Source: Lysobacterales bacterium
GTDB lineage: Bacteria; Pseudomonadota; Gammaproteobacteria; Xanthomonadales; SZUA-5
DNA length: 14,831 nt
Assembly (NCBI GenBank): GCA_022844165.1
Contig: JALHMH010000045.1
Span: 18,841-33,671 of the forward strand
Direction of reading: 5' to 3'
In this document: in pieces, positions 1 to 13,008 of the stretch
How the letters are laid out: each line of letters opens with the position of its first letter
How positions within the stretch are numbered: the first letter of the stretch is position 1
Position numbers and translations under genes: made by a program
The notes under the pieces: model-generated
What the model was told of the DNA's origin: nothing
Seen by the model: the letters and a program-made list of their open reading frames with translations, nothing else
The model's database searches: none

Positions 1-140
1 CCCAGCGGCATAGCCGCTGGGCGTTGTGCTCGGCACACGCCTGCGGCGTGCTCTGGCCAGTTCGCCCGGCCCAGCGGCATAGCCGCTGGGCGTTCGGCTC
101 GGCACACGCCTGCGGCGTGTAAGCGCCGAGCCTCACCCAC
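1..140. repeat. Tandem palindromic REP/BIME-like repeat, two ~50-bp units at 69-bp spacing (may continue left of the window)
   Basis: 1-50 and 70-119 are 48/50 identical. Each unit has hairpin CCCAGCGGC-ATA-GCCGCTGGG and hairpin CACGCC-TGC-GGCGTG. In copy 2 the second hairpin is extended by GGCTCGGC(96-103)/GCCGAGCC(125-132). The minus strand begins GTGG at 140, matching the GTRG REP tetranucleotide. Confidence 0.75.
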
Positions 141-1897: not shown

Positions 1898-2914
1898 ATG
1901 ACCAAACTGTATTCCGAACACGACGTGCAACCCGAAGCCCTGAAAGGTCAGCGGATTGCGATCTTAGGTTATGGCAGTCAGGGCCGCGCGCAGGCGCTGA
2001 ACCTTCGCGACTCGGGTTTCGATGTGATCCCGGCATTGCGGCCGGGTGGGAAAACCTGGGCACAGGCCGAAGCCGATGGCTTCAAGCCCAAGGAGCCCAG
2101 CGTCGCTCTCAAGGACGCGCACGTCATCAGCATGCTTCTACCGGATACCGAACAGCCCAAAGCCTATGAGCAGTGGGTAGCACCCAACTTGAAGGCCGGT
2201 TCGCTACTGATGTTCGCGCATGGTTTCAACGTCCACTACGGCACGATTGTGCCACCCAAAGACGTCGACGTGGCACTCGTTGCGCCCAAAGCGCCCGGTA
2301 AGCTGGTCCGCCGTCAATACGAAGAGGGCCGTGGCGTGCCGAGCCTGGTCGCGGTACATCAAGACGCGACGGGCACAGCCAAAGCACGGGCATTGGCATG
2401 GGCATGGGGCGTCGGTTCCGCGCACGCGGGTGTACTCGAGACCACTTTTGCCGAAGAGACGGAAACCGATTTGTTTGGCGAACAGGCGGTGTTGTGCGGC
2501 GGCGCCACAGAATTGGTGCAAGCTGGATTCGAGACGCTCGTGCAAGCGGGCTATCAACCTGAAGTGGCCTATTTCGAGGTCCTGCACGAGCTCAAGCTGA
2601 TCGTCGATTTGTTGTACGAAGGCGGCATGGCACGCATGCACCAGTTCATCAGCGATACCGCCAAGTACGGCGATCTGACGCGTGGCCCACGCGTCATCAA
2701 CGGCAATGCCCGCAAAGCGATGCGCGAAATCCTGGAAGAGATCCGCAACGGAACGTTTGCCCGCGAGTGGATTGCGGAAAACGCCAACGGCGCACCGAAC
2801 TACAAGGCCCTGCTCGACCGCGACCTCGCCCACCCGATCGAGTCGGTGGGCAAACGTCTGCGCGCGCGCATGAGCTGGCTGCAAGCAGCACAACCCACCG
2901 AGAAAACGGATTGA
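1898..2914 (+). CDS. ilvC: Ketol-acid reductoisomerase, class I (short, 338 aa)
   Basis: GYGSQG Rossmann motif, [61 protein letters not shown]. Starts 42 bp after the ilvD stop. Confidence 0.97.
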
Positions 2915-3002
2915 CGGCCGAACCCGATTCGAATGCCGAGTGAGCGCCGATCAGCGTATTGGTTCGTATCGTCGTTGACAGCGGAGATTACCGTGCCGCT
3001 AG

Positions 3003-3154
3003 CAGGCTGTTGAGAAACAGGCTGCGGGCGCGAACCCTGGATGGTTCGCACATGGGTCGAGCACGTAAGTGCTTGATCCATGGAGAGCGAGTCCGGACAT
3101 GTGCCGGACTCGCGACTTGAGAAACGCACAGGAAGTGCGTTTCTCAACATCGTG
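3003..3154. mobile_element. MITE-like non-autonomous element (152 bp), IS5/IS1182-like ends, highly structured interior
   Basis: Left end CAGGCTGTTGAGAAAC (3003-3018) and right end GTTTCTCAACATCGTG (3139-3154) form a 14/16 inverted repeat whose inner 11 bp are perfect. Flanks are CTAG (2999-3002) and CCAG (3155-3158), a possible target duplication. No transposase is present. The family assignment rests on recalled resemblance of the ends and is unverified. Confidence 0.7.
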
Positions 3155-3171
3155 CCAGGGCAGGAGATCGA

Positions 3172-3435
3172 GTGAACGAACACTTCGTTTCGCTACACGA
3201 GTTAAGCGCGATGGACGCGTTGTACGCCGAGCGATCGCCGAGTGGCCGTCCATCGGGTTGGGGGCCGCTGGTCGAGTCGTTGCGCGATGTGCGGCGCCTG
3301 ATCGAATCCGGTACGGCAGTGCGCATCGCCGACGGCCCAGTCCTCGGCAGTTGGTCTGAGTTTTATGCATGGGCGCATGGGCGTTACCACGCTCTCGAAG
3401 ACGGATACGACGCCTGGATCGGCGATGACAATTGA
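3172..3435 (+). CDS. Small hypothetical protein (87 aa), acidic and Trp/Tyr-rich C-terminus
   Basis: GTG start with AGGAG RBS at 3162-3166. Composition is protein-like (WSEFYAWAHGRYHALEDGYDAWIGDDN), unlike the Arg-rich shadow ORFs. Confidence 0.7.
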   Translation: MNEHFVSLHELSAMDALYAERSPSGRPSGWGPLVESLRDVRRLIESGTAVRIADGPVLGSWSEFYAWAHGRYHALEDGYDAWIGDDN

Positions 3436-3465
3436 GTCAGATCTTCTTAGAAGCGGCTTTGGCTT

Positions 3466-3828
3466 TTGCAGCCCCTGAAGTTTAGGATCAAACAAACCAT
3501 CGATCTGTCTCGCCCGGCGGTTACGCCAGTGGTTGCCGAAGTCTTGCTGTACGGCGCGCTCGTGTACGAATTGCGCGACGTGGCAACGGAACGCGATGCG
3601 ATGTTGGCCCGCCTCAAGGGTGCACTCGCCGCCGGTTTCCAGCGTGGAAGCTGGGACCTCAACCCGATGTTCGATGCCGTGTTGCCGCGACTGCCGGATG
3701 CTCGACAATCGTTCTATCGCAGCCTTGGGGATGCGCTTCTCGATCCTGATCGCGTGGCGGCCTTGGATTTGCTGCCCGAATGGCGCGCGTTGCAAGTGCG
3801 CGATCCGTTGGCACCGGATGCGGGCTGA
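3466..3828 (+). CDS. Hypothetical helical protein, possibly a 5'-truncated remnant of a larger gene
   Basis: The C-terminal ~95 aa look natural and amphipathic (AEVLLYGAL...LARLKGALAAGFQRGSWDLNPMF...LLPEWRAL). The TTG start is weak, there is no clear RBS, and the first ~20 aa look non-native. Confidence 0.5.
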   Translation: MQPLKFRIKQTIDLSRPAVTPVVAEVLLYGALVYELRDVATERDAMLARLKGALAAGFQRGSWDLNPMFDAVLPRLPDARQSFYRSLGDALLDPDRVAALDLLPEWRALQVRDPLAPDAG

Positions 3829-3982
3829 CCGAATGCGTGTCCTGATTTGATTAGGTGGCAATGTCAACAGCCGAGGGCGCCACGAAAGCGCTTTGTCGCC
3901 ACGCCCGGCGAGGGAAACCATCGATACCGGTCGCCGGATGTGCTTCATGCAGCGTTGGGCGCAGCCATCCACTGCGTTAACC

Positions 3983-4034: not shown

Positions 4035-7000
4035 TTAACCCGCCGGAATGATGCGACGACGGGAAATAACAGTCGAGGCATTGGCCGTGTTGTTACTGCC
4101 GTTACTATCGTTCGCCGCACCTGCCGTAACGGTTGTGTTGAGCGTGCCGCTGGCAGTCGCAGGTACCGTCACGACGATCGTTGCGGTGCGCGTTGCGCTG
4201 GCAGGCGTTGCCCCGGCCCAGGTGCACACCACCGTCGGGCTACCGCTGCATGTGCCGCCGTTGCTGGCGACCGCAGACACAAAGATCGTCGGCGCCGGCA
4301 GGGGCAGCGAAATGCTGGCATTGTTCGCGCTGCCCGGCCCGTTGCTGGTCAGTGTCGCGACATACGTCAGCTGCGCGCCAGGCGACACCGGATCGGGACT
4401 GTCGCTCAGCGTGACACTGACATCGGCCGCTACCGAACAATTGGTTGCGCATACCGGCGATTGCCGCGTGATGCTGAGTCCCCAGCCGGCAAGAGAGCCC
4501 GAGTCGCCCGACAGATCATCGACCACATAAAGCGACCAAATACCGTTGGGATTTATCCCGTTGAAGTCGCTTAACGCACTGCCGTACGGTGCCGCCGGTG
4601 CCGGCGCGTTGAAGGTGTCGGTAGCGCCGATGTTGGTTGGGCGGAACGTACCAGAAACCAATGGGCCATTGTCTGGAAGCACGCTGGCTGCGCTGTCGCG
4701 TAAAGTGAAGTTCAGGTTCACCGCATCGGTTGAGCTGCCAACGTCCGACATGATCACCACGCGCTGCCCGCCCGGCCCGACCAACAGTATGTCGACATCA
4801 TCCGGGAACGTGTGGCTGAAGCTGTTCAAGCTGACCGCCACTTCCGTCACAGTCCCACTCAAACCGCTCACTGTGATGTTGCTGGGGTATGGATTGGCGA
4901 CACCCAGCGCTGCGATCGCGATGGGTGTGTTACTGCCAAAAAACGTCGTCGCGGACGTGGTAGCTCCCAGTACGAAGTTGAAACTCACGGTTCCCAAGTT
5001 GATCTGGCCATCTTGCAAAGCAAGCGTCGCGGTGATCGTGCCGCCGCAGCTGCCCGTCGCCGTAAAGGTGAAGGGTCGCGCCGCTGCCGCTCCGCCAGCG
5101 ATCAGACTGCCATAGGCCTGCGCCGCGCTCGGCGACGTAACGCCGCCGCTGCTTTGCAGGGTGGCGACTAGATTGGTGGTGTTCGCAACACCGACGTTCT
5201 GCAACGAGAAATCCACGGTCACGACTTCCGTTGGATCGACTGCTCCATTGTTCGGCGTGCAGCTGCCAGTCACCAGACTGGCGCCTGCTGCGGAGATCAC
5301 CGGCAGGCTCGCTGAGGTGGCGTTATGGACGACCAACGCGTAATGCTGATCGGTGGCATCTGCATTGCCGAGCACACCATTGCCGTTGAGCGCGGTTGCT
5401 CGAACGGCGACGGAAATCGGGGAACCGGCAGGCGTGCCGGCCGGCAACAGAACCTGCTCAACATTGTTACGCGTATCTGCGATGCCGCCCGTGGTGCTCA
5501 CGCCGGCGGCAAAGACGTTGCCTCGGTAAAGGTTACCCGCCACAGTCACTTCAAGGTCGAGATTATTGACCAACGCCGGATCGGCCACTGCGGGCGGATC
5601 GGTCCAGACCAGCGACACCCGTATCGGCGCAGCCGCCGACGACACGGTGCCGACAAAGGTACTGGTGTTGCCGACATTTTCGAGCGTCGTCGTTTGATCG
5701 ATGTATTGCGTGGCGATTCCGGTGTTCAGCACGCGACGGAGATTGACGCGCCCCCAGCCTTCGGCGCCATTCGGAATCGCGGCGGAAGCCGTACTGCCGG
5801 TCATCTCGGTGGCCCCGTTCAAGAGCGCCGCCTTGACCAACGCCGGCGATGGATTGGCGCCTGCATTCCCTGCTTTCCACCACTGCGTGAACAGCGCCGC
5901 AGCGCCCGCAACTTGCGGCGCGGCGTGTGAGGTGCCGCTGCTCCAGCGATGATTCGTGTCGATATTGCCGAACAAGGCGTCTGGCCCGGAGCGCCCGCCG
6001 CTGACCGCCTGCCCTGGGGCCGTAATGTCCGGTTTCACCCGACCATCGGCGGCAAAACCGCGCGATGAAAAGTCCGACACGTCTTCCAGACTGTTGGCAG
6101 CGCCGTCGATTTCTGGACGCAGGTTTTCCGATGACGCAACCGTAATCACATTCTTGGCGACTTTGGGGCGGGTCAGGCCGCTCGTCCCCTGATTCCCTGC
6201 CGAGAAAATAATGCTCAGCGGATCGATACTCGCCGCGGAGGAAGCGTCGCGCACGAAGCCGTCGAACTGCGCGGCGAGCGCGTCATAGGCATTGCCGTTC
6301 GTTCCCGCGCCCCAGCTGTTGTTGCTCAGGTTGCTGATGACGCCATTCAGGCCAGGGGTCGTCACCGCGTCGTTCGCGGTATTGGCCTCCACGCCTGTGT
6401 AACCAGATCGCAAGAACGGAATATTGACGATGTGCGCGTTCGGCGCGATACCGAGGCCATAGTTGTAGCCAGTGGGATCGAGCGTCGAGAACGGCGTGGT
6501 GCCGGCAATGATGCTCGCCTGCAGGTGGCCATGACCTTGTGCGCCAGCGGTTGCGCCGCGCAGCGGTCCGTTCACGGTGTTTGCGGCAGTCACGTAAAAA
6601 CCACCATCGCCGGGAATACCGACACCATCGTCGACAACGGCCACGGTCACGTTGTTGCCGGTCACGCCGAACTGCGCCAGCGGGTTATAGCCTGGAGGGT
6701 TCAGCACGTTTCCGACGAAGTTGCCGGCGACGATCTGCGCCGCGCGTTCGTCTTCGCGGGTCGGCGCGATGTACGGATCGACTGCAATGACGCCCGGCAA
6801 TGCGGACACCGACTTCAGATCCTCCGGCGCCAAGTACACGCGCAGCACATTGAAGTAGTTGTTAGGCAGGACCGCCTGGGCGATCACCTCTGGTTGTGAG
6901 CCAAATTGCTCAACCGTCTGACGCACCGATTCCAGACTAAAGCTCTCCAGCACAGCGATATCGTAGAGCGCCTTGAAGCTTTTGCCGAAGTTACCCGAGG

Positions 7001-7601
7001 GCTTGTCGTTCTGTGCTGCAAACACCCAATCGAGGGCAGGCGCGAGCTTGGCAGCGGCCGGCAGCGCGCCAACCCAACGTACCGTCGGCAGATCGGCCGC
7101 GGCCTCAACAGCACTGCGCCGGGCCTTCACCAGAAACGCCTGCTGCGGAAGGTACTGCAAAACGTCGAGACCACGCTTACGCAAATCGGCGAGCGTTGCA
7201 TCGCTCGCCGGCGCTGCGAGTTGCAGCACAAACACGCCTTCGCTGTCGGTCTTGACCCCGGCACAAGCGGCGCGCACAGAATCGGGGACTTCGCTGGCCG
7301 GATCGAAACTGAGATTTCGCAACTCAATGCGCGTGTCGAGCGGCCGCACGCGGCTTTCGATGAACTGCCCGGGCAGCGCCTGCCGCCCAGTCTTGGCCAC
7401 GCCAGAGACGATCACGTAATGGCCGTGATCGGCCACCACCGGGCCGAGAGATTTCGCAAATGCGTGATCGGCCGGAGTGGTTGTCTCAACGACACTCAGC
7501 TGTTTCAGCGCCGCGACCGGCGGCGCGCACAAATCTCCGCCAGACGCTGTTGAACTTGCCAGTACAACCAATCCGCCGATCCACCATCGCGACTGAACCA
7601 T
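4035..7601 (-). CDS. Secreted multidomain S8 (subtilisin-like) serine protease, ~1188 aa: signal peptide, prodomain, S8 catalytic domain, C-terminal jelly-roll, Ig-like domain, proprotein-convertase P-domain, DUF11-like domain
   Basis: Triad motifs VAVVDDG (Asp), GHGHLQASII (His) and GTSHAAPQVAG (Ser), oxyanion SAGNQG, FSSRG..DGRVKPDITAPG. LVWTDPP...LVNNLDL is a KP-43-type tail. HTFPDDVDILLVGPGG marks the P-domain, ADVSVTLSDSPDPVSPGAQLTY the DUF11-like domain. ATG at 7601 has a GGGGA RBS and encodes the signal MVQSRWWIGGLVVLASSTASG. Confidence 0.92.
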   Translation of the reverse strand: MVQSRWWIGGLVVLASSTASGGDLCAPPVAALKQLSVVETTTPADHAFAKSLGPVVADHGHYVIVSGVAKTGRQALPGQFIESRVRPLDTRIELRNLSFDPASEVPDSVRAACAGVKTDSEGVFVLQLAAPASDATLADLRKRGLDVLQYLPQQAFLVKARRSAVEAAADLPTVRWVGALPAAAKLAPALDWVFAAQNDKPSGNFGKSFKALYDIAVLESFSLESVRQTVEQFGSQPEVIAQAVLPNNYFNVLRVYLAPEDLKSVSALPGVIAVDPYIAPTREDERAAQIVAGNFVGNVLNPPGYNPLAQFGVTGNNVTVAVVDDGVGIPGDGGFYVTAANTVNGPLRGATAGAQGHGHLQASIIAGTTPFSTLDPTGYNYGLGIAPNAHIVNIPFLRSGYTGVEANTANDAVTTPGLNGVISNLSNNSWGAGTNGNAYDALAAQFDGFVRDASSAASIDPLSIIFSAGNQGTSGLTRPKVAKNVITVASSENLRPEIDGAANSLEDVSDFSSRGFAADGRVKPDITAPGQAVSGGRSGPDALFGNIDTNHRWSSGTSHAAPQVAGAAALFTQWWKAGNAGANPSPALVKAALLNGATEMTGSTASAAIPNGAEGWGRVNLRRVLNTGIATQYIDQTTTLENVGNTSTFVGTVSSAAAPIRVSLVWTDPPAVADPALVNNLDLEVTVAGNLYRGNVFAAGVSTTGGIADTRNNVEQVLLPAGTPAGSPISVAVRATALNGNGVLGNADATDQHYALVVHNATSASLPVISAAGASLVTGSCTPNNGAVDPTEVVTVDFSLQNVGVANTTNLVATLQSSGGVTSPSAAQAYGSLIAGGAAAARPFTFTATGSCGGTITATLALQDGQINLGTVSFNFVLGATTSATTFFGSNTPIAIAALGVANPYPSNITVSGLSGTVTEVAVSLNSFSHTFPDDVDILLVGPGGQRVVIMSDVGSSTDAVNLNFTLRDSAASVLPDNGPLVSGTFRPTNIGATDTFNAPAPAAPYGSALSDFNGINPNGIWSLYVVDDLSGDSGSLAGWGLSITRQSPVCATNCSVAADVSVTLSDSPDPVSPGAQLTYVATLTSNGPGSANNASISLPLPAPTIFVSAVASNGGTCSGSPTVVCTWAGATPASATRTATIVVTVPATASGTLNTTVTAGAANDSNGSNNTANASTVISRRRIIPAG

Positions 7602-7872
7602 CGAATCCCCCTGATCTGTGGTTGACGATGAGGATAACGCGAAGGTTCGGGCAAGCCCAGCAACGAAGTTTGACGACACAGAGGCACTTCCCGGCGAGAT
7701 CGGCTTCACCGAGTGGTCGTTTCGATTCAGCGCGGCTTGGTGAATCGCGCGCTGAGTTATCGTGCTTATTCGAATCCGCTGGCGACTTACTGACTGGCAA
7801 GTGCAAGAAACGTCGGGACAAGTTCGGTCTGGCTCGCGCATGATTGCAACGAATTCGGATTTGAGGTGCGCC

Positions 7873-8304
7873 GTGGCGACCATCCAACCAGACCAAAAAC
7901 CCAGCATCTGGCGCATTCTTGCGGCTACTCTCGCAGCGCAGATACTTCTCGTACTTGCGGCGGTCGCTTGGGTCGCGATTTACAGTCATCTGATCGCACC
8001 GGATCAACCCATGACTGCCTACCACGCGCATGCGCAAGTTTCAGGACCGTGGGTCTCTTTGATCGTCGGAGTTCCGGTCTTCCTGACTCTGTCCATATGG
8101 CTGGCGCGAGCAAGGCCTGCGGCAGCCAAATCCAGCGCGCTGTTGTTCGCAGCCGTTTACATCGCGTTCGACCTCGCGATCTTGTTGTTGTTGGCAACGA
8201 CCGCAATTCCGTGGGCAATGGTGATCCTGAACTATGTCGCAAAAACCGGTGCGGCCTGGTGGGGCGCGCACCACGCCACGCAAAGGTTTGAGCCTGCGGC
8301 ATGA
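7873..8304 (+). CDS. Small integral membrane protein (~143 aa, ~4 TM helices)
   Basis: Four hydrophobic stretches. GTG at 7873 has a GAGG RBS at 7863-7866. The stop overlaps the next ATG (ATGA, 8301-8304). Confidence 0.8.
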   Translation: MATIQPDQKPSIWRILAATLAAQILLVLAAVAWVAIYSHLIAPDQPMTAYHAHAQVSGPWVSLIVGVPVFLTLSIWLARARPAAAKSSALLFAAVYIAFDLAILLLLATTAIPWAMVILNYVAKTGAAWWGAHHATQRFEPAA

Positions 8305-10332: not shown

Positions 10333-10485
10333 CAGAGCAGCAATCGGGATAGCTGGCGGCAGCGTCGTTGTTGCGCATCGATTTTCGGTACTTGCGACGT
10401 GCCCTACCTGCTGCGGGACCAAAGGCACATGATTCGGCGCCAGCCCACGGGCAAGATCGCACAAAGAGTCCGTGGAGGCTTGGCG

Positions 10486-11685
10486 ATGTCCTCGACCGTG
10501 TTCAACCGGTGGTTTTTCGCGGCACTGCTTGGCTATCAAAGCTGCGCTTCGGCGGAGTTTGTCGATGTCTCAGCCAGCAATTTGCCGCAAGCGGCGCTCG
10601 CAGATCGCAGCATGGATGTCGAATTCGCCGACCTCGATGGAGATCGCGATCCGGACATCATCGTCGCCAAGGAATTTGCACGCAACCTGTGGCTACGAAA
10701 CGATGGCAGTTTCAGCTTCTCGTTGGCGACCAACGCCATGCCAAATACAAACGAAGATTCCGAAGACGTACTCGCAGGCGACTTTGATGGCGACGGCGAC
10801 ACAGACGTGATTTTCGTCAGCGAGGACACAGCGACCAACGAGTATTTTGTCAACAACGGCTCAGGTGCTTTTTCAGTGAGCCCAAACACGTTGCCAGCGA
10901 ACACTGCATCCAACGCCGGGCTTGTGCACGATCTGGATGGCGACGGCGATCTCGATCTGATCATTGCGCGCAACAACGCGCGCGAACTCATCATGTTGAA
11001 CGATGGCGCCGGCGCCTTCACCGATGTCTCGAATACCTGGATGCCCGACGGCATCGTCGACATCACGCAGGACATCGAGTTAGCCGATGTCGACGGTGAC
11101 GGCGATCTGGATTTGTTGGCGGCGAACGAACCCAATAACGGCGGCCGCAATCGGGTCTATATCCGAAAGGGCAACAGCTTCGTTGACGAGTCGCAGGCGC
11201 GCATCCCATTGCGTGCAACGCGCGAAGAAACACGCGAAGTGGCTCATGGCGATGTCGACGGCGATCTCGATATCGACATCGTTTACGGCAATGTCGATTT
11301 CGCCAACGTCGACAACGCCGCCAACCGCATACTGATCAACAACGGCAGCGGCTTTTTCAGCGACGAGACCGCAACCCGATTGCCCGACATACGCCGCGCG
11401 ACGCTGGATGTCGATCTGGCCGACGTCGACGGCGACCTGGACCTGGACTTGTTGATCGCCAACTTCAGCTTTGGCTTGCAAGTCCAGCTCAACAACGGCG
11501 CTGGCGTATTCACCGAAGCCACCGCTCAGATCCTCGGCGCCTCGGCGTCCAATCGCAACACCATCGACGTCGAGTTCATCACTGCCGCCGGCGCCCGTTG
11601 GATCTATGAGGCAGGCTTCAACGCCGTCGACCGTCTGCTGCGCGAAAACACCGATGCACTTTTTGCGGATGGATTTGGGTCGTGA
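10486..11685 (+). CDS. Secreted FG-GAP/VCBS-repeat (Ca-binding beta-propeller) protein with C-terminal DALFADGF tail
   Basis: Six D-x-D-G-D-x-D-x-D repeats, most followed by N-[ND]-G-x-G-x-F. Signal peptide MSSTVFNRWFFAALLGYQSCASA. GGAGG RBS at 10474-10478. Confidence 0.9.
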   Translation: MSSTVFNRWFFAALLGYQSCASAEFVDVSASNLPQAALADRSMDVEFADLDGDRDPDIIVAKEFARNLWLRNDGSFSFSLATNAMPNTNEDSEDVLAGDFDGDGDTDVIFVSEDTATNEYFVNNGSGAFSVSPNTLPANTASNAGLVHDLDGDGDLDLIIARNNARELIMLNDGAGAFTDVSNTWMPDGIVDITQDIELADVDGDGDLDLLAANEPNNGGRNRVYIRKGNSFVDESQARIPLRATREETREVAHGDVDGDLDIDIVYGNVDFANVDNAANRILINNGSGFFSDETATRLPDIRRATLDVDLADVDGDLDLDLLIANFSFGLQVQLNNGAGVFTEATAQILGASASNRNTIDVEFITAAGARWIYEAGFNAVDRLLRENTDALFADGFGS

Positions 11686-11913: not shown

Positions 11914-13008
11914 CTAGCGATCTGGCGAATCGGTTTGCCCCGGTGGCAGCGTCAGGCGCGGCAGTAGCTCGCTGGTGATGAGCTTGAGCGTCAGCAGATG
12001 CGGCTGGGGTTCGTTGAAGTTCTCGCTGGTGATCACGATGACGACCTGGCGTTCGGGATGCAGGAGCACGATGTTGCCGCCGCTGCCGGCCATGGCGGGC
12101 AGCGACAGCGACTGGCCATCGGTTCCCACGGGCAGTTTCATCAGCCACCATAGATAGCCGTAATCGGCGTCTGGCCGTGCGGTGGCTTTGGGGCTGAGCG
12201 AGGTTTGCACCCAGTGGGCCGGCACGACCTGTTTGCCATGATGGCGGCCGCCATCGAGGTACAGTTGCCCGAGTGTCCAGAGATCGCGGGTGCGCAGGCT
12301 CAATCCACCGCCGCCCTGCGCCAGACCCAGCGGCGAGTATTGCCATAGCGCGGATGGGATACCGAGCGGCGCGAACAGGCGCTGCTCAGCGTAAGCCGGC
12401 AGCGGTTGCCCAACAGCCGCTTGCAGCACGGCGCCCAGGGTTGTAACGCCGGCCGTGCAATAGCGAAAACTGCGCCCGAACGGCGAGTCGATCGGCTTGG
12501 CGATCCAGGCCGGATACCCCTGGATCGGCAGGTCAAGATAAAACTGCACCCAGTCTTCGATCAGGTACATGCGCTCTTCGTTGCCGCGCGAGTACGAATT
12601 CTCATCGTCGCATTCCAGCGCCGAGGACATGGTCAGCAGATCCTCAACGGAGATTGCGAGCTTGCGCGGATCCGCATGGGCCATTTTTCGACGCATCGAC
12701 CTCGGCAGGATGTCGAGGATCGGCACCGCGGTATCGCGCAGATGGCCGTCGGCGATCGCCAAACCGGTCAGCATTCCGGTTAGAGTTTTGGTCACCGATC
12801 GCGTGTTGCGCAGGGTGTCGCGATCGCCGCCTGCGGCGTAGTACTCAAACAGTACCTCGCCGTCTTGCGCCAGCAGCACGCTCGAAATCGATTTGAAATC
12901 GCCGCGCGTCAGCCGCTCGCGAACGCCATCGAAGGGCGCCTCGGCACTCGCAAACAGTGACATCAGCAAGAGGCTCAGCAAGCCAGACCAGCGGCAGCTC
13001 TTGTTCAT
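11914..13008 (-). CDS. Secreted serine hydrolase, beta-lactamase class C/AmpC-like superfamily (NylB/CubicO-like)
   Basis: SxxK motif RSVTKT, LLTMSS, FRYCT (catalytic Tyr), LFAPLGI, YGYLWW, MAGSGG. Signal peptide MNKSCRWSGLLSLLLMSLFASA. AAGGAG RBS upstream of ATG 13008. Confidence 0.9.
   Translation of the reverse strand: MNKSCRWSGLLSLLLMSLFASAEAPFDGVRERLTRGDFKSISSVLLAQDGEVLFEYYAAGGDRDTLRNTRSVTKTLTGMLTGLAIADGHLRDTAVPILDILPRSMRRKMAHADPRKLAISVEDLLTMSSALECDDENSYSRGNEERMYLIEDWVQFYLDLPIQGYPAWIAKPIDSPFGRSFRYCTAGVTTLGAVLQAAVGQPLPAYAEQRLFAPLGIPSALWQYSPLGLAQGGGGLSLRTRDLWTLGQLYLDGGRHHGKQVVPAHWVQTSLSPKATARPDADYGYLWWLMKLPVGTDGQSLSLPAMAGSGGNIVLLHPERQVVIVITSENFNEPQPHLLTLKLITSELLPRLTLPPGQTDSPDR

Follow-up and report, generated by a model that had tools for sequence, protein, structure and literature searches.

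The stretch of DNA analysed here (the window) comprises 14,831 nucleotides of the Lysobacterales bacterium assembly GCA_022844165.1 (contig JALHMH010000045.1, positions 18,841 to 33,671), and all coordinates are those of this 14.8-kb window. In the intergenic space between ilvC and a gene for a conserved hypothetical protein of 87 amino acids (ORF87) lies a hairpin-dense block bounded by inverted repeats and by CTAG or a near match to it; "+" denotes the strand on which its five hairpins are read from first to last (H1 to H5). Judging from its sequence and that of its relatives, the block is very probably a non-autonomous MITE (miniature inverted-repeat transposable element) of the IS5 family, which measures 152 bp, has inverted repeats of 16 bp and is inserted in a presumably duplicated CTAG. 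Its ends are shared with insertion sequences (ISs) that encode an IS5-type transposase, elements with these ends occupy many unrelated sites, and many of them have CTAG on both flanks.

Structure and folding of the element

The terminal inverted repeats match at 14 of 16 positions and, counted together with the flanks, form a repeat of 20 nt (2999–3018 and 3139–3158) with 17 of 20 positions (85%) complementary, so the CTAG and CCAG flanks carry on the inverted symmetry. The window has two occurrences of the core TGTTGAGAAAC at one mismatch or fewer, one at each element end (0.16 occurrences expected), and the 5' arm of H5, at 3117, repeats TTGAGAAAC a third time. In H1 a short inverted copy, which carries the G-G mismatch, pairs with the 9 outermost nt of the left repeat; in H5 an inverted copy of the repeat's inner part pairs with the right repeat (Table 1). 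The same repeats, flanks and five back-to-back hairpins had been reported in a preliminary description made from the letters of the sequence, and all were recovered at the positions given there. The open reading frames (ORFs) that cross the element are long antisense or out-of-frame artefacts lacking coding-type G+C content at third codon positions, and the element carries no transposase gene.

Read as + strand RNA, the window copy folds with a minimum free energy of -96.3 kcal/mol, against -53.4 ± 4.1 kcal/mol for shuffled sequences (z -10.5). The − strand RNA reaches -85.1 kcal/mol (z -9.4), and the + strand folded with DNA parameters reaches -57.7 kcal/mol (z -10.1) with the same five hairpins. 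Each fold was compared with 200 shuffles, none of which was as good in any of the three cases. Perfect hairpins of at least 8 bp gave 17 hits in the window (several of them nested) against a shuffle mean of 2.1, concentrated at 1–91 and 3087–3147.

A search of Rfam, which the preliminary description had proposed, matched no family: Rfam 15 returned no match for the whole window at gathering thresholds, and the E-value mode on 2850–3250 returned a single weak microRNA model (22.4 bits against 44), a score at the level of chance. Scanning for promoters and terminators found no promoter-like (sigma-70-like) or terminator-like site inside the element, and the two terminator-like sites found within 2800–3500 both lie beyond its borders. 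The tail TTTCTCAA after the inner stem of H5 contains four T in eight positions, under the rule of the terminator scan. For the window copy, the idea of H5 as a terminator in both directions was given up, the scan being empty within the element.

Table 1. Positions of the element, its parts and the adjoining genes in the window
Feature	Coordinates	Strand	Description and basis
Element	2999..3158		Flanks included, 152 bp between flanks; intergenic, between ilvC and the 87-aa gene
Left flank CTAG	2999..3002	.	Presumed left copy of the 4-bp target duplication; read from the sequence
Left terminal inverted repeat	3003..3018	+	CAGGCTGTTGAGAAAC; repeat search, motif search
H1	3002..3025	+	9 pairs and one G-G mismatch, loop GAGA; fold
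H2	3030..3049	+	7 bp, loop CTGGAT; fold
H3	3051..3082	+	14 bp, two of them G-T pairs, loop GTAA; fold
H4	3087..3113	+	10 perfect bp; fold, repeat and hairpin scans
H5	3117..3147	+	13 perfect bp, loop AGGAA; fold, repeat and hairpin scans
Right terminal inverted repeat	3139..3154	-	Reads CACGATGTTGAGAAAC on the − strand; repeat search
Right flank CCAG	3155..3158	.	Presumed right copy of the target duplication, one base off CTAG
ilvC, ketol-acid reductoisomerase	1898..2914	+	Pfam KARI_N and KARI_C; stop 85 nt 5' of the element
ORF87, conserved 87-aa hypothetical protein	3172..3435	+	Start codon 13 nt past the element

Shared ends, partner insertion sequences and target sites

We scanned 185,579 species genomes with one 20-nt pattern that merged both ends and had its near flank fixed to CTRG. 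The pattern was found at no fewer than 113 loci (L001–L113), where chance would give about 9 (596 Gb searched on two strands with 17 fixed and three two-fold positions); this and all family counts below refer to the matches listed. The shared end occurs in Lysobacterales, other Proteobacteria, Myxococcota, Planctomycetota, Nitrospirota, Acidobacteriota and other hosts. The identical left 16-mer begins full-length IS5-family elements and all of the short elements, 48 of which are complete (41–279 nt), with both ends and no gene.

A hidden Markov model and then a covariance model were built from 17 copies and applied at a cut-off of 70 bits, which gave 37 five-hairpin copies on the H1-to-H5 strand, the window's included; the other 36 rows of the covariance search were weak and represent the opposite strand of the same copies or bare ends. 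The 36 copies outside the window, which the preliminary description had suggested looking for in relatives, are spread over 12 assemblies, mostly of Lysobacterales. Nine loci are in Lysobacterales Bin_30_3_3, seven in Lysobacterales Co_metawrap_2246 and three in Lysobacterales bin79; two Tahibacter metagenome-assembled genomes (MAGs) hold three together, a Lysobacteraceae, an Aquimonas and a Proteobacteria MAG one each, three other gammaproteobacterial MAGs ten together, and a Desulfarculus MAG one. BA1A108 contains six copies. Identity to the window copy is 91–93% in Bin_30_3_3, 74% in L035, 63–69% in a group of copies termed B and 55–56% in a group termed C. The right-end variant of the window copy is seen again in the Bin_30_3_3 copies, which have differing flanks; two of these (L055 and L080) are identical over 160 nt at separate sites, which argues for recent movement. 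Five-hairpin copies were met only in MAGs, and full-length IS copies or ends also in cultured Rhodanobacter and Tahibacter strains. The proposal that the block is MITE-like and mobile is thus borne out by the shared ends and by the many copies at unrelated sites.

The partner ISs that share these ends can be seen whole. One contig of 1,248 bp (L046) consists of a single complete IS with a perfect 17-nt inverted repeat, and a 1.25-kb IS with a 21-nt inverted repeat (296–316 and 1528–1548) is present in L041. Six ORFs beside an end were scanned against Pfam; four contained DUF772 and DDE_Tnp_1, and two matched no family. All four of the partner transposases tested pass the NCBIfam model NF033581 for the IS5 family (256–274 bits, cut-off 140), and they fall under the cut-off for IS1182 (187–210 bits against 270) and under those for ISNCY and IS4. 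The link to the IS5 family made in the preliminary description is supported by these ISs with the same ends. The hairpin array is absent from the IS itself. Tahibacter MAG4 carries an IS-type end (L025) together with two five-hairpin copies (L102 and L105). Of 118 end matches, 21 are no more than 250 nt from where a contig stops, with the element heading past that point, the expected mark of a multicopy IS.

The far flank supports CTAG as the insertion site, as the preliminary description had it: among the 48 complete short elements it reads CTAG in 27, and CTAG stands on both sides in 25. Variants of the far flank are mostly one base off, with CCAG the commonest (four of 48), followed by CTAA (three) and TTAG (two). 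IS5 targets YTAR, and the CTAA and TTAG flanks fit this consensus. Two abutting elements in L041 share one CTAG. According to the available text of PMC3189936, MITEPsy1, which derives from an IS5-family IS and was trapped while transposing, makes a 4-nt duplication at CTAG or YTAA; the flanking CTAG of the present family would fit the 4-bp CTAG duplication of such IS5-derived MITEs. Because CTAG is palindromic, a duplication is indistinguishable from a longer repeat when no empty site is at hand (CTAG/CCAG in the window). Of 71 element ends, 24 adjoin an ORF of 100 or more codons whose stop codon is the flank's TAG, against 13 and 5 in the two shifted control frames; many insertions therefore coincide with the stop codon of a gene, and the duplication would restore that stop. 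The window holds four CTAGs against 52.5 expected from base composition. They lie at 2999 (the MITE flank), 5168, 11914 and 13803, and those at 11914 and 13803 are the low-coordinate ends (TAG stops) of − strand ORFs.

We therefore favour a non-autonomous IS5-family MITE, with a mechanism that is, in its chemistry, drawn by analogy with IS5 and MITEPsy1. The DDE transposase of a roughly 1.25-kb IS with the same ends would act in trans on the element, recognise its ends, insert it at CTAG, which is scarce in this genome and frequently overlaps TAG stops, and duplicate the four bases, probably by cut-and-paste. The window copy is an older, decaying insertion. It has 91–93% identity to the near-identical copies in the genome of its closest relative, a CCAG right flank and a mismatch in H1, and has lost an internal CTAG.

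Several points weigh against this identification. The window holds a single copy, and its source genome is not among the loci listed. No full-length IS was found in Bin_30_3_3 among the matches listed, and MAGs often lose IS copies. The near flank was preset to CTRG by the search pattern, which leaves the far flank alone as an unbiased witness of the target. No empty site was seen, and the sites shared across assemblies (L028/L029/L070 and L039/L060) all carry the element; L032 and L021, tried for the same purpose, were uninformative, the five-hairpin element being truncated beside a second MITE in both. The state of affairs that the preliminary description had named as speaking against a mobile element (a single copy, no IS sharing the ends and no covariation) is nonetheless clearly not the one found.

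Several copies vary in ways of their own. At one insertion site shared by three related MAGs (L028, L029 and L070) the element is 177, 241 and 160 nt long, the differences being insertions in the H2 region; it varies by whole modules, and copies of about 194 nt in L045, L051 and L077 have H3 duplicated. The Desulfarculus copy (L010, 1820–2020; 70 bits) has the same left end and five-hairpin layout with other stems and a diverged right end, and its presence in a different phylum suggests inter-phylum transfer or a very old family. A second, CTAG-flanked MITE family occurs in Bin_30_3_3 (L021 2094–2196, L032 1825–1927 and L083 144–300); it measures 103 nt in L021 and L032, has 17-nt terminal repeats starting TGTGGTGTCCC, and adjoins the five-hairpin element or truncated copies of it.

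The plasmid collection gave no match to the element (distant mode) or to the whole window (near mode). Full-text literature searches with a 16-mer and a 12-mer of the end motif matched no bacterial or transposon paper, judged by titles and abstracts, and no description of the motif or the family was found in the open literature; ISfinder and subscription journals were outside the scope of both searches.

Conservation of the hairpins and competing explanations

All lineages retain five hairpins in the same order and of similar sizes, with differing stem sequences. Both sides had changed in 18 of the 46 pairs predicted for 17 copies aligned with MAFFT. A covariance-model check had been proposed in the preliminary description. 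In the model-guided alignment (A3), which covers 27 copies, pairing extends to 92.7% of cells (shuffles, 75.2%), and both sides have changed in 44 of 57 pairs (shuffles, 25.4), with none of 500 shuffles reaching the observed value. Covariation scores 0.458, compared with 0.154 for shuffles and 0.132 or less with slid partners; these figures are upper estimates, as A3 was fitted to the model structure and favours pairing counts, and the copies are related sequences, so the shuffle control overstates significance. Both cautions count against too strong a reading of the covariation. Among the 27 copies, pairs changed on both sides number 5 of 7 in H2, 13 of 14 in H3, 10 of 10 in H4 and 11 of 13 in H5. 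Within lineages, pair-breaking changes in H2–H4 affect 12 of 186 paired columns, against 21 of 78 unpaired columns that vary (Fisher p = 1.8e-5). Pairing in all five hairpins is maintained by compensatory change between lineages that are only 55–69% identical, and the statement that the block is not ordinary spacer DNA agrees with hairpins that are conserved and co-vary across copies.

In relatives, H1 is a perfect 13-bp hairpin with an internal CTAG at its end (groups A and B have this CTAG after H1), where the window copy reads CGGG. Other short elements with the same ends fold as one end-to-end hairpin in 15 of 21 cases; because these same-ended elements fold as a single hairpin, the array is evidently not needed for end recognition.

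Whether the hairpins are selected as RNA, specifically on the + strand, with the family as a mobile structured-RNA module of one functional strand, is not settled by these data, and we regard it as unlikely. On the + strand, G-U cells number 51 at 18 sites and A-C cells 21 at 11 sites; uncompensated stem transitions within lineages yield 19 G-U against three A-C (binomial p = 0.0009); the + strand RNA is stabler by more than 2 kcal/mol in about 25 of 33 listed copies and never less stable by that margin; and the H3 loop reads GTAA or GCAA in groups A and B. The preliminary description had taken the G-U pairs and GNRA loops as evidence of + strand RNA selection, but in that form the argument lacks support: unpaired columns are biased likewise, 15 to 5 (Fisher p = 0.45 between classes), and lineage-specific folds give 23:9 in paired and 13:5 in unpaired columns. 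The asymmetry of G-U and A-C was therefore rejected as proof of RNA-level selection. As for the loops, the GAGA of H1 is part of the terminal repeat common to every element type, the full-length IS included, and the GNRA loop of H3 is not general, being absent from L035 (group A2) and group C, in which both strands also fold equally well. The element contains no sigma-70-like promoter and matched no family in Rfam. Copies face neighbouring genes either way: at gene 3' ends 7 are sense and 10 antisense, at 5' ends 4 and 8, by crude gene calls (our own ORF calls with a codon-position GC filter, omitting the duplicates L028, L029 and L060 and the contig-end L013). This mixture weighs against a strand-bound role and fits an orientation-independent role as well as no RNA role at all. 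Counted as transitions on the element strand, A>G plus C>T against G>A plus T>C number 19:3 in stems and 15:5 in unpaired columns, 34:8 in total.

It is also possible, if somewhat unlikely, that the hairpins have no function, their arms being kept matched by template switching in quasi-palindromes and the array being a frozen accident of the MITE's origin, such as a "nano-MITE" of two terminal inverted repeats fused with other palindromic DNA. In E. coli, template switching is known to correct quasi-palindromes. In keeping with this, the two strands of the window copy fold almost equally well, stems are mostly perfect even in recent copies, and the orientation towards neighbours is mixed. H1 with the internal CTAG also resembles a 22-bp two-ended mini element, free-standing elements of 41–51 nt that contain little beyond two ends exist (L011, L087 and L092), and in L037 (2296–2467) H1 is a complete repeat-to-repeat hairpin resembling them. 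Set against it, hairpin number, order and size persist across lineages of 55–69% identity and into the Desulfarculus MAG, a persistence that would require each palindrome to be maintained over long times; changes that break a pair are about fourfold rarer than changes at unpaired sites, which fits correction and selection alike.

Two explanations that deny a transposon of this type altogether are very improbable. A cluster of repetitive extragenic palindromic (REP) sequences, resembling a bacterial interspersed mosaic element (BIME) and spread by a REP-associated tyrosine transposase (RAYT) rather than derived from a DDE element, would account for a short G+C-rich hairpin array in an intergenic gap and for the second, different hairpin repeat at window positions 1–130, yet the five hairpins are mutually different and share no REP consensus, the block moves as a 152-bp unit bounded by 16-bp repeats identical to the ends of IS5-family ISs, its flanks are CTAG, and the window showed no RAYT gene. 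A regulatory RNA specific to this locus (serving ilvC as a 3' untranslated region, terminator or attenuator, or ORF87 as a leader) is equally hard to credit: its placement 85 nt past ilvC and 13 nt ahead of the start codon of ORF87 would suit such a role, but the same element stands beside unrelated genes at 36 other places, no terminator- or promoter-like site lies inside it, and Rfam gave no match. A local side effect on the expression of ilvC or ORF87 is possible.

Returning to the IS5-family MITE, we tentatively suggest, and hold it short of likely, that the short stem-loops do their work in nucleic acid that is single-stranded, whichever their orientation, likeliest on read-through from neighbouring genes. 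As in REP/BIME or bcr1, they would form stable local structures at gene ends with no long end-to-end duplex, and insertions made tolerable in consequence would let the five-hairpin lineage spread. A doubtful extension is that the lineage goes beyond a passive deletion derivative and evolved a portable stem-loop module under single-strand selection, each terminal repeat masked by a local partner, which would serve at gene ends to stabilise or insulate when read through from host genes; such a module would explain the spread among Lysobacterales, other Gammaproteobacteria and a Desulfarculus MAG. In a bolder version, the 34:8 transition asymmetry would be the trace of a transcript with fixed polarity, or of a single-stranded intermediate, in the life cycle of the element.

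The neighbourhood and remaining features of the window complete this description. IlvC has relatives at 99%, 91% and 85% identity, and the best match with a name, from a "Xanthomonadales bacterium" MAG, stands at 70%. ORF87 has 34 homologues of 85–144 aa at 54–71% identity, one of them labelled Blastocatellia, and matched no Pfam family; an AGGAGA ribosome-binding site lies between the element and its GTG start. A 256-aa ORF on the − strand at 3202–3972 was taken as not real, as it has no homologue, whereas the 87-aa + strand ORF is real. Upstream of ilvD, positions 1–130 hold a second hairpin-rich repeat that runs off the window start (RNA fold z -5.5); a 69-nt unit occurs twice in it (50 nt at 96% identity), each unit with a 9–10-bp perfect palindrome, and no copy was present in 113 fetched loci at three mismatches or fewer. 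A 1,293-aa subtilase with P-domain and DUF11 (4035–7916, − strand) and a 428-aa FG-GAP repeat protein (10399–11685, with a DNA periodicity of about 150 nt) are both ordinary for their families.

Relation to known mobile repeats

The partner ISs resemble the IS5 family in their length of about 1.25 kb, inverted repeats of 16–21 nt, CTAG flanks and the combination of DUF772 and DDE_Tnp_1; the window element, unlike IS5-family ISs, lacks a transposase. Among plasmids, the nearest named relatives are remote: the partner transposase has only about 55% protein identity to those of ISAzs10 and ISAtc5, and at the DNA level ISButh5 is nearest, at about 65% over part of its length. ISAzs10 likewise begins TAG|CAGGC.

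On this identification, an odd hairpin-dense spacer is explained as a mobile element, and the 20-nt end motif and the covariance model mark a large, apparently unnamed IS5-type family with its MITEs in many phyla. Such elements break assemblies (21 of the 118 ends stand at contig ends) and sit on stop codons. The same ends carry two kinds of cargo, one-hairpin MITEs and the five-hairpin type with co-varying stems, and a comparison of the two could ask what internal structure does, be it host tolerance, effects on mRNA or nothing.

Among described MITEs, MITEPsy1 of P. syringae pv. phaseolicola (derived from ISPsy2) is alike in being short and non-coding with repeats all but identical to the ends of an IS5-family IS, and the available text of PMC3189936 reports its mobility by trapping in sacB. 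It differs in its length of 100 nt and its 18-nt repeats of other sequence (GGAAGGTCTGAAAAAGCC), and no hairpin array is described in that text. The bcr1 element of the Bacillus cereus group, in the available text of PMC3184786, is MITE-like, about 155 bp long and flanked by direct repeats, is transcribed, and has compensatory changes that keep a multi-stem RNA. It is unlike the present family in having two independent stem-loops, a cruciform-like form and 5-bp duplications, and no partner IS is named in that text; the present family has five serial hairpins, an IS5 partner and CTAG flanks. REP/BIME sequences of enterobacteria, Pseudomonas and Stenotrophomonas are described in the same source as short G+C-rich intergenic hairpins, often between convergent genes, that can stabilise upstream mRNA (PMC3184786). 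A REP is one palindrome in alternating orientation, linked to RAYT and lacking terminal inverted repeats, whereas the present family has five different hairpins inside IS5-type ends that travel together.

Also comparable are the Correia and ERIC elements, MITE-like intergenic repeats of about 100–160 bp whose transcripts fold. Their fold is one long hairpin from end to end, and their duplexes are targets of RNase III; the present family avoids end-to-end pairing. For Correia (NEMIS), a typical MITE fold is depicted in the available part of PMC3184786. Both the kind of element, an IS5-family MITE, and the CTAG rule are thus already known, as are MITE-like repeats with multi-stem folds preserved by compensatory change (bcr1). 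What distinguishes the present family is its five serial co-varying hairpins with locally masked ends, where ordinary MITEs form one long hairpin.

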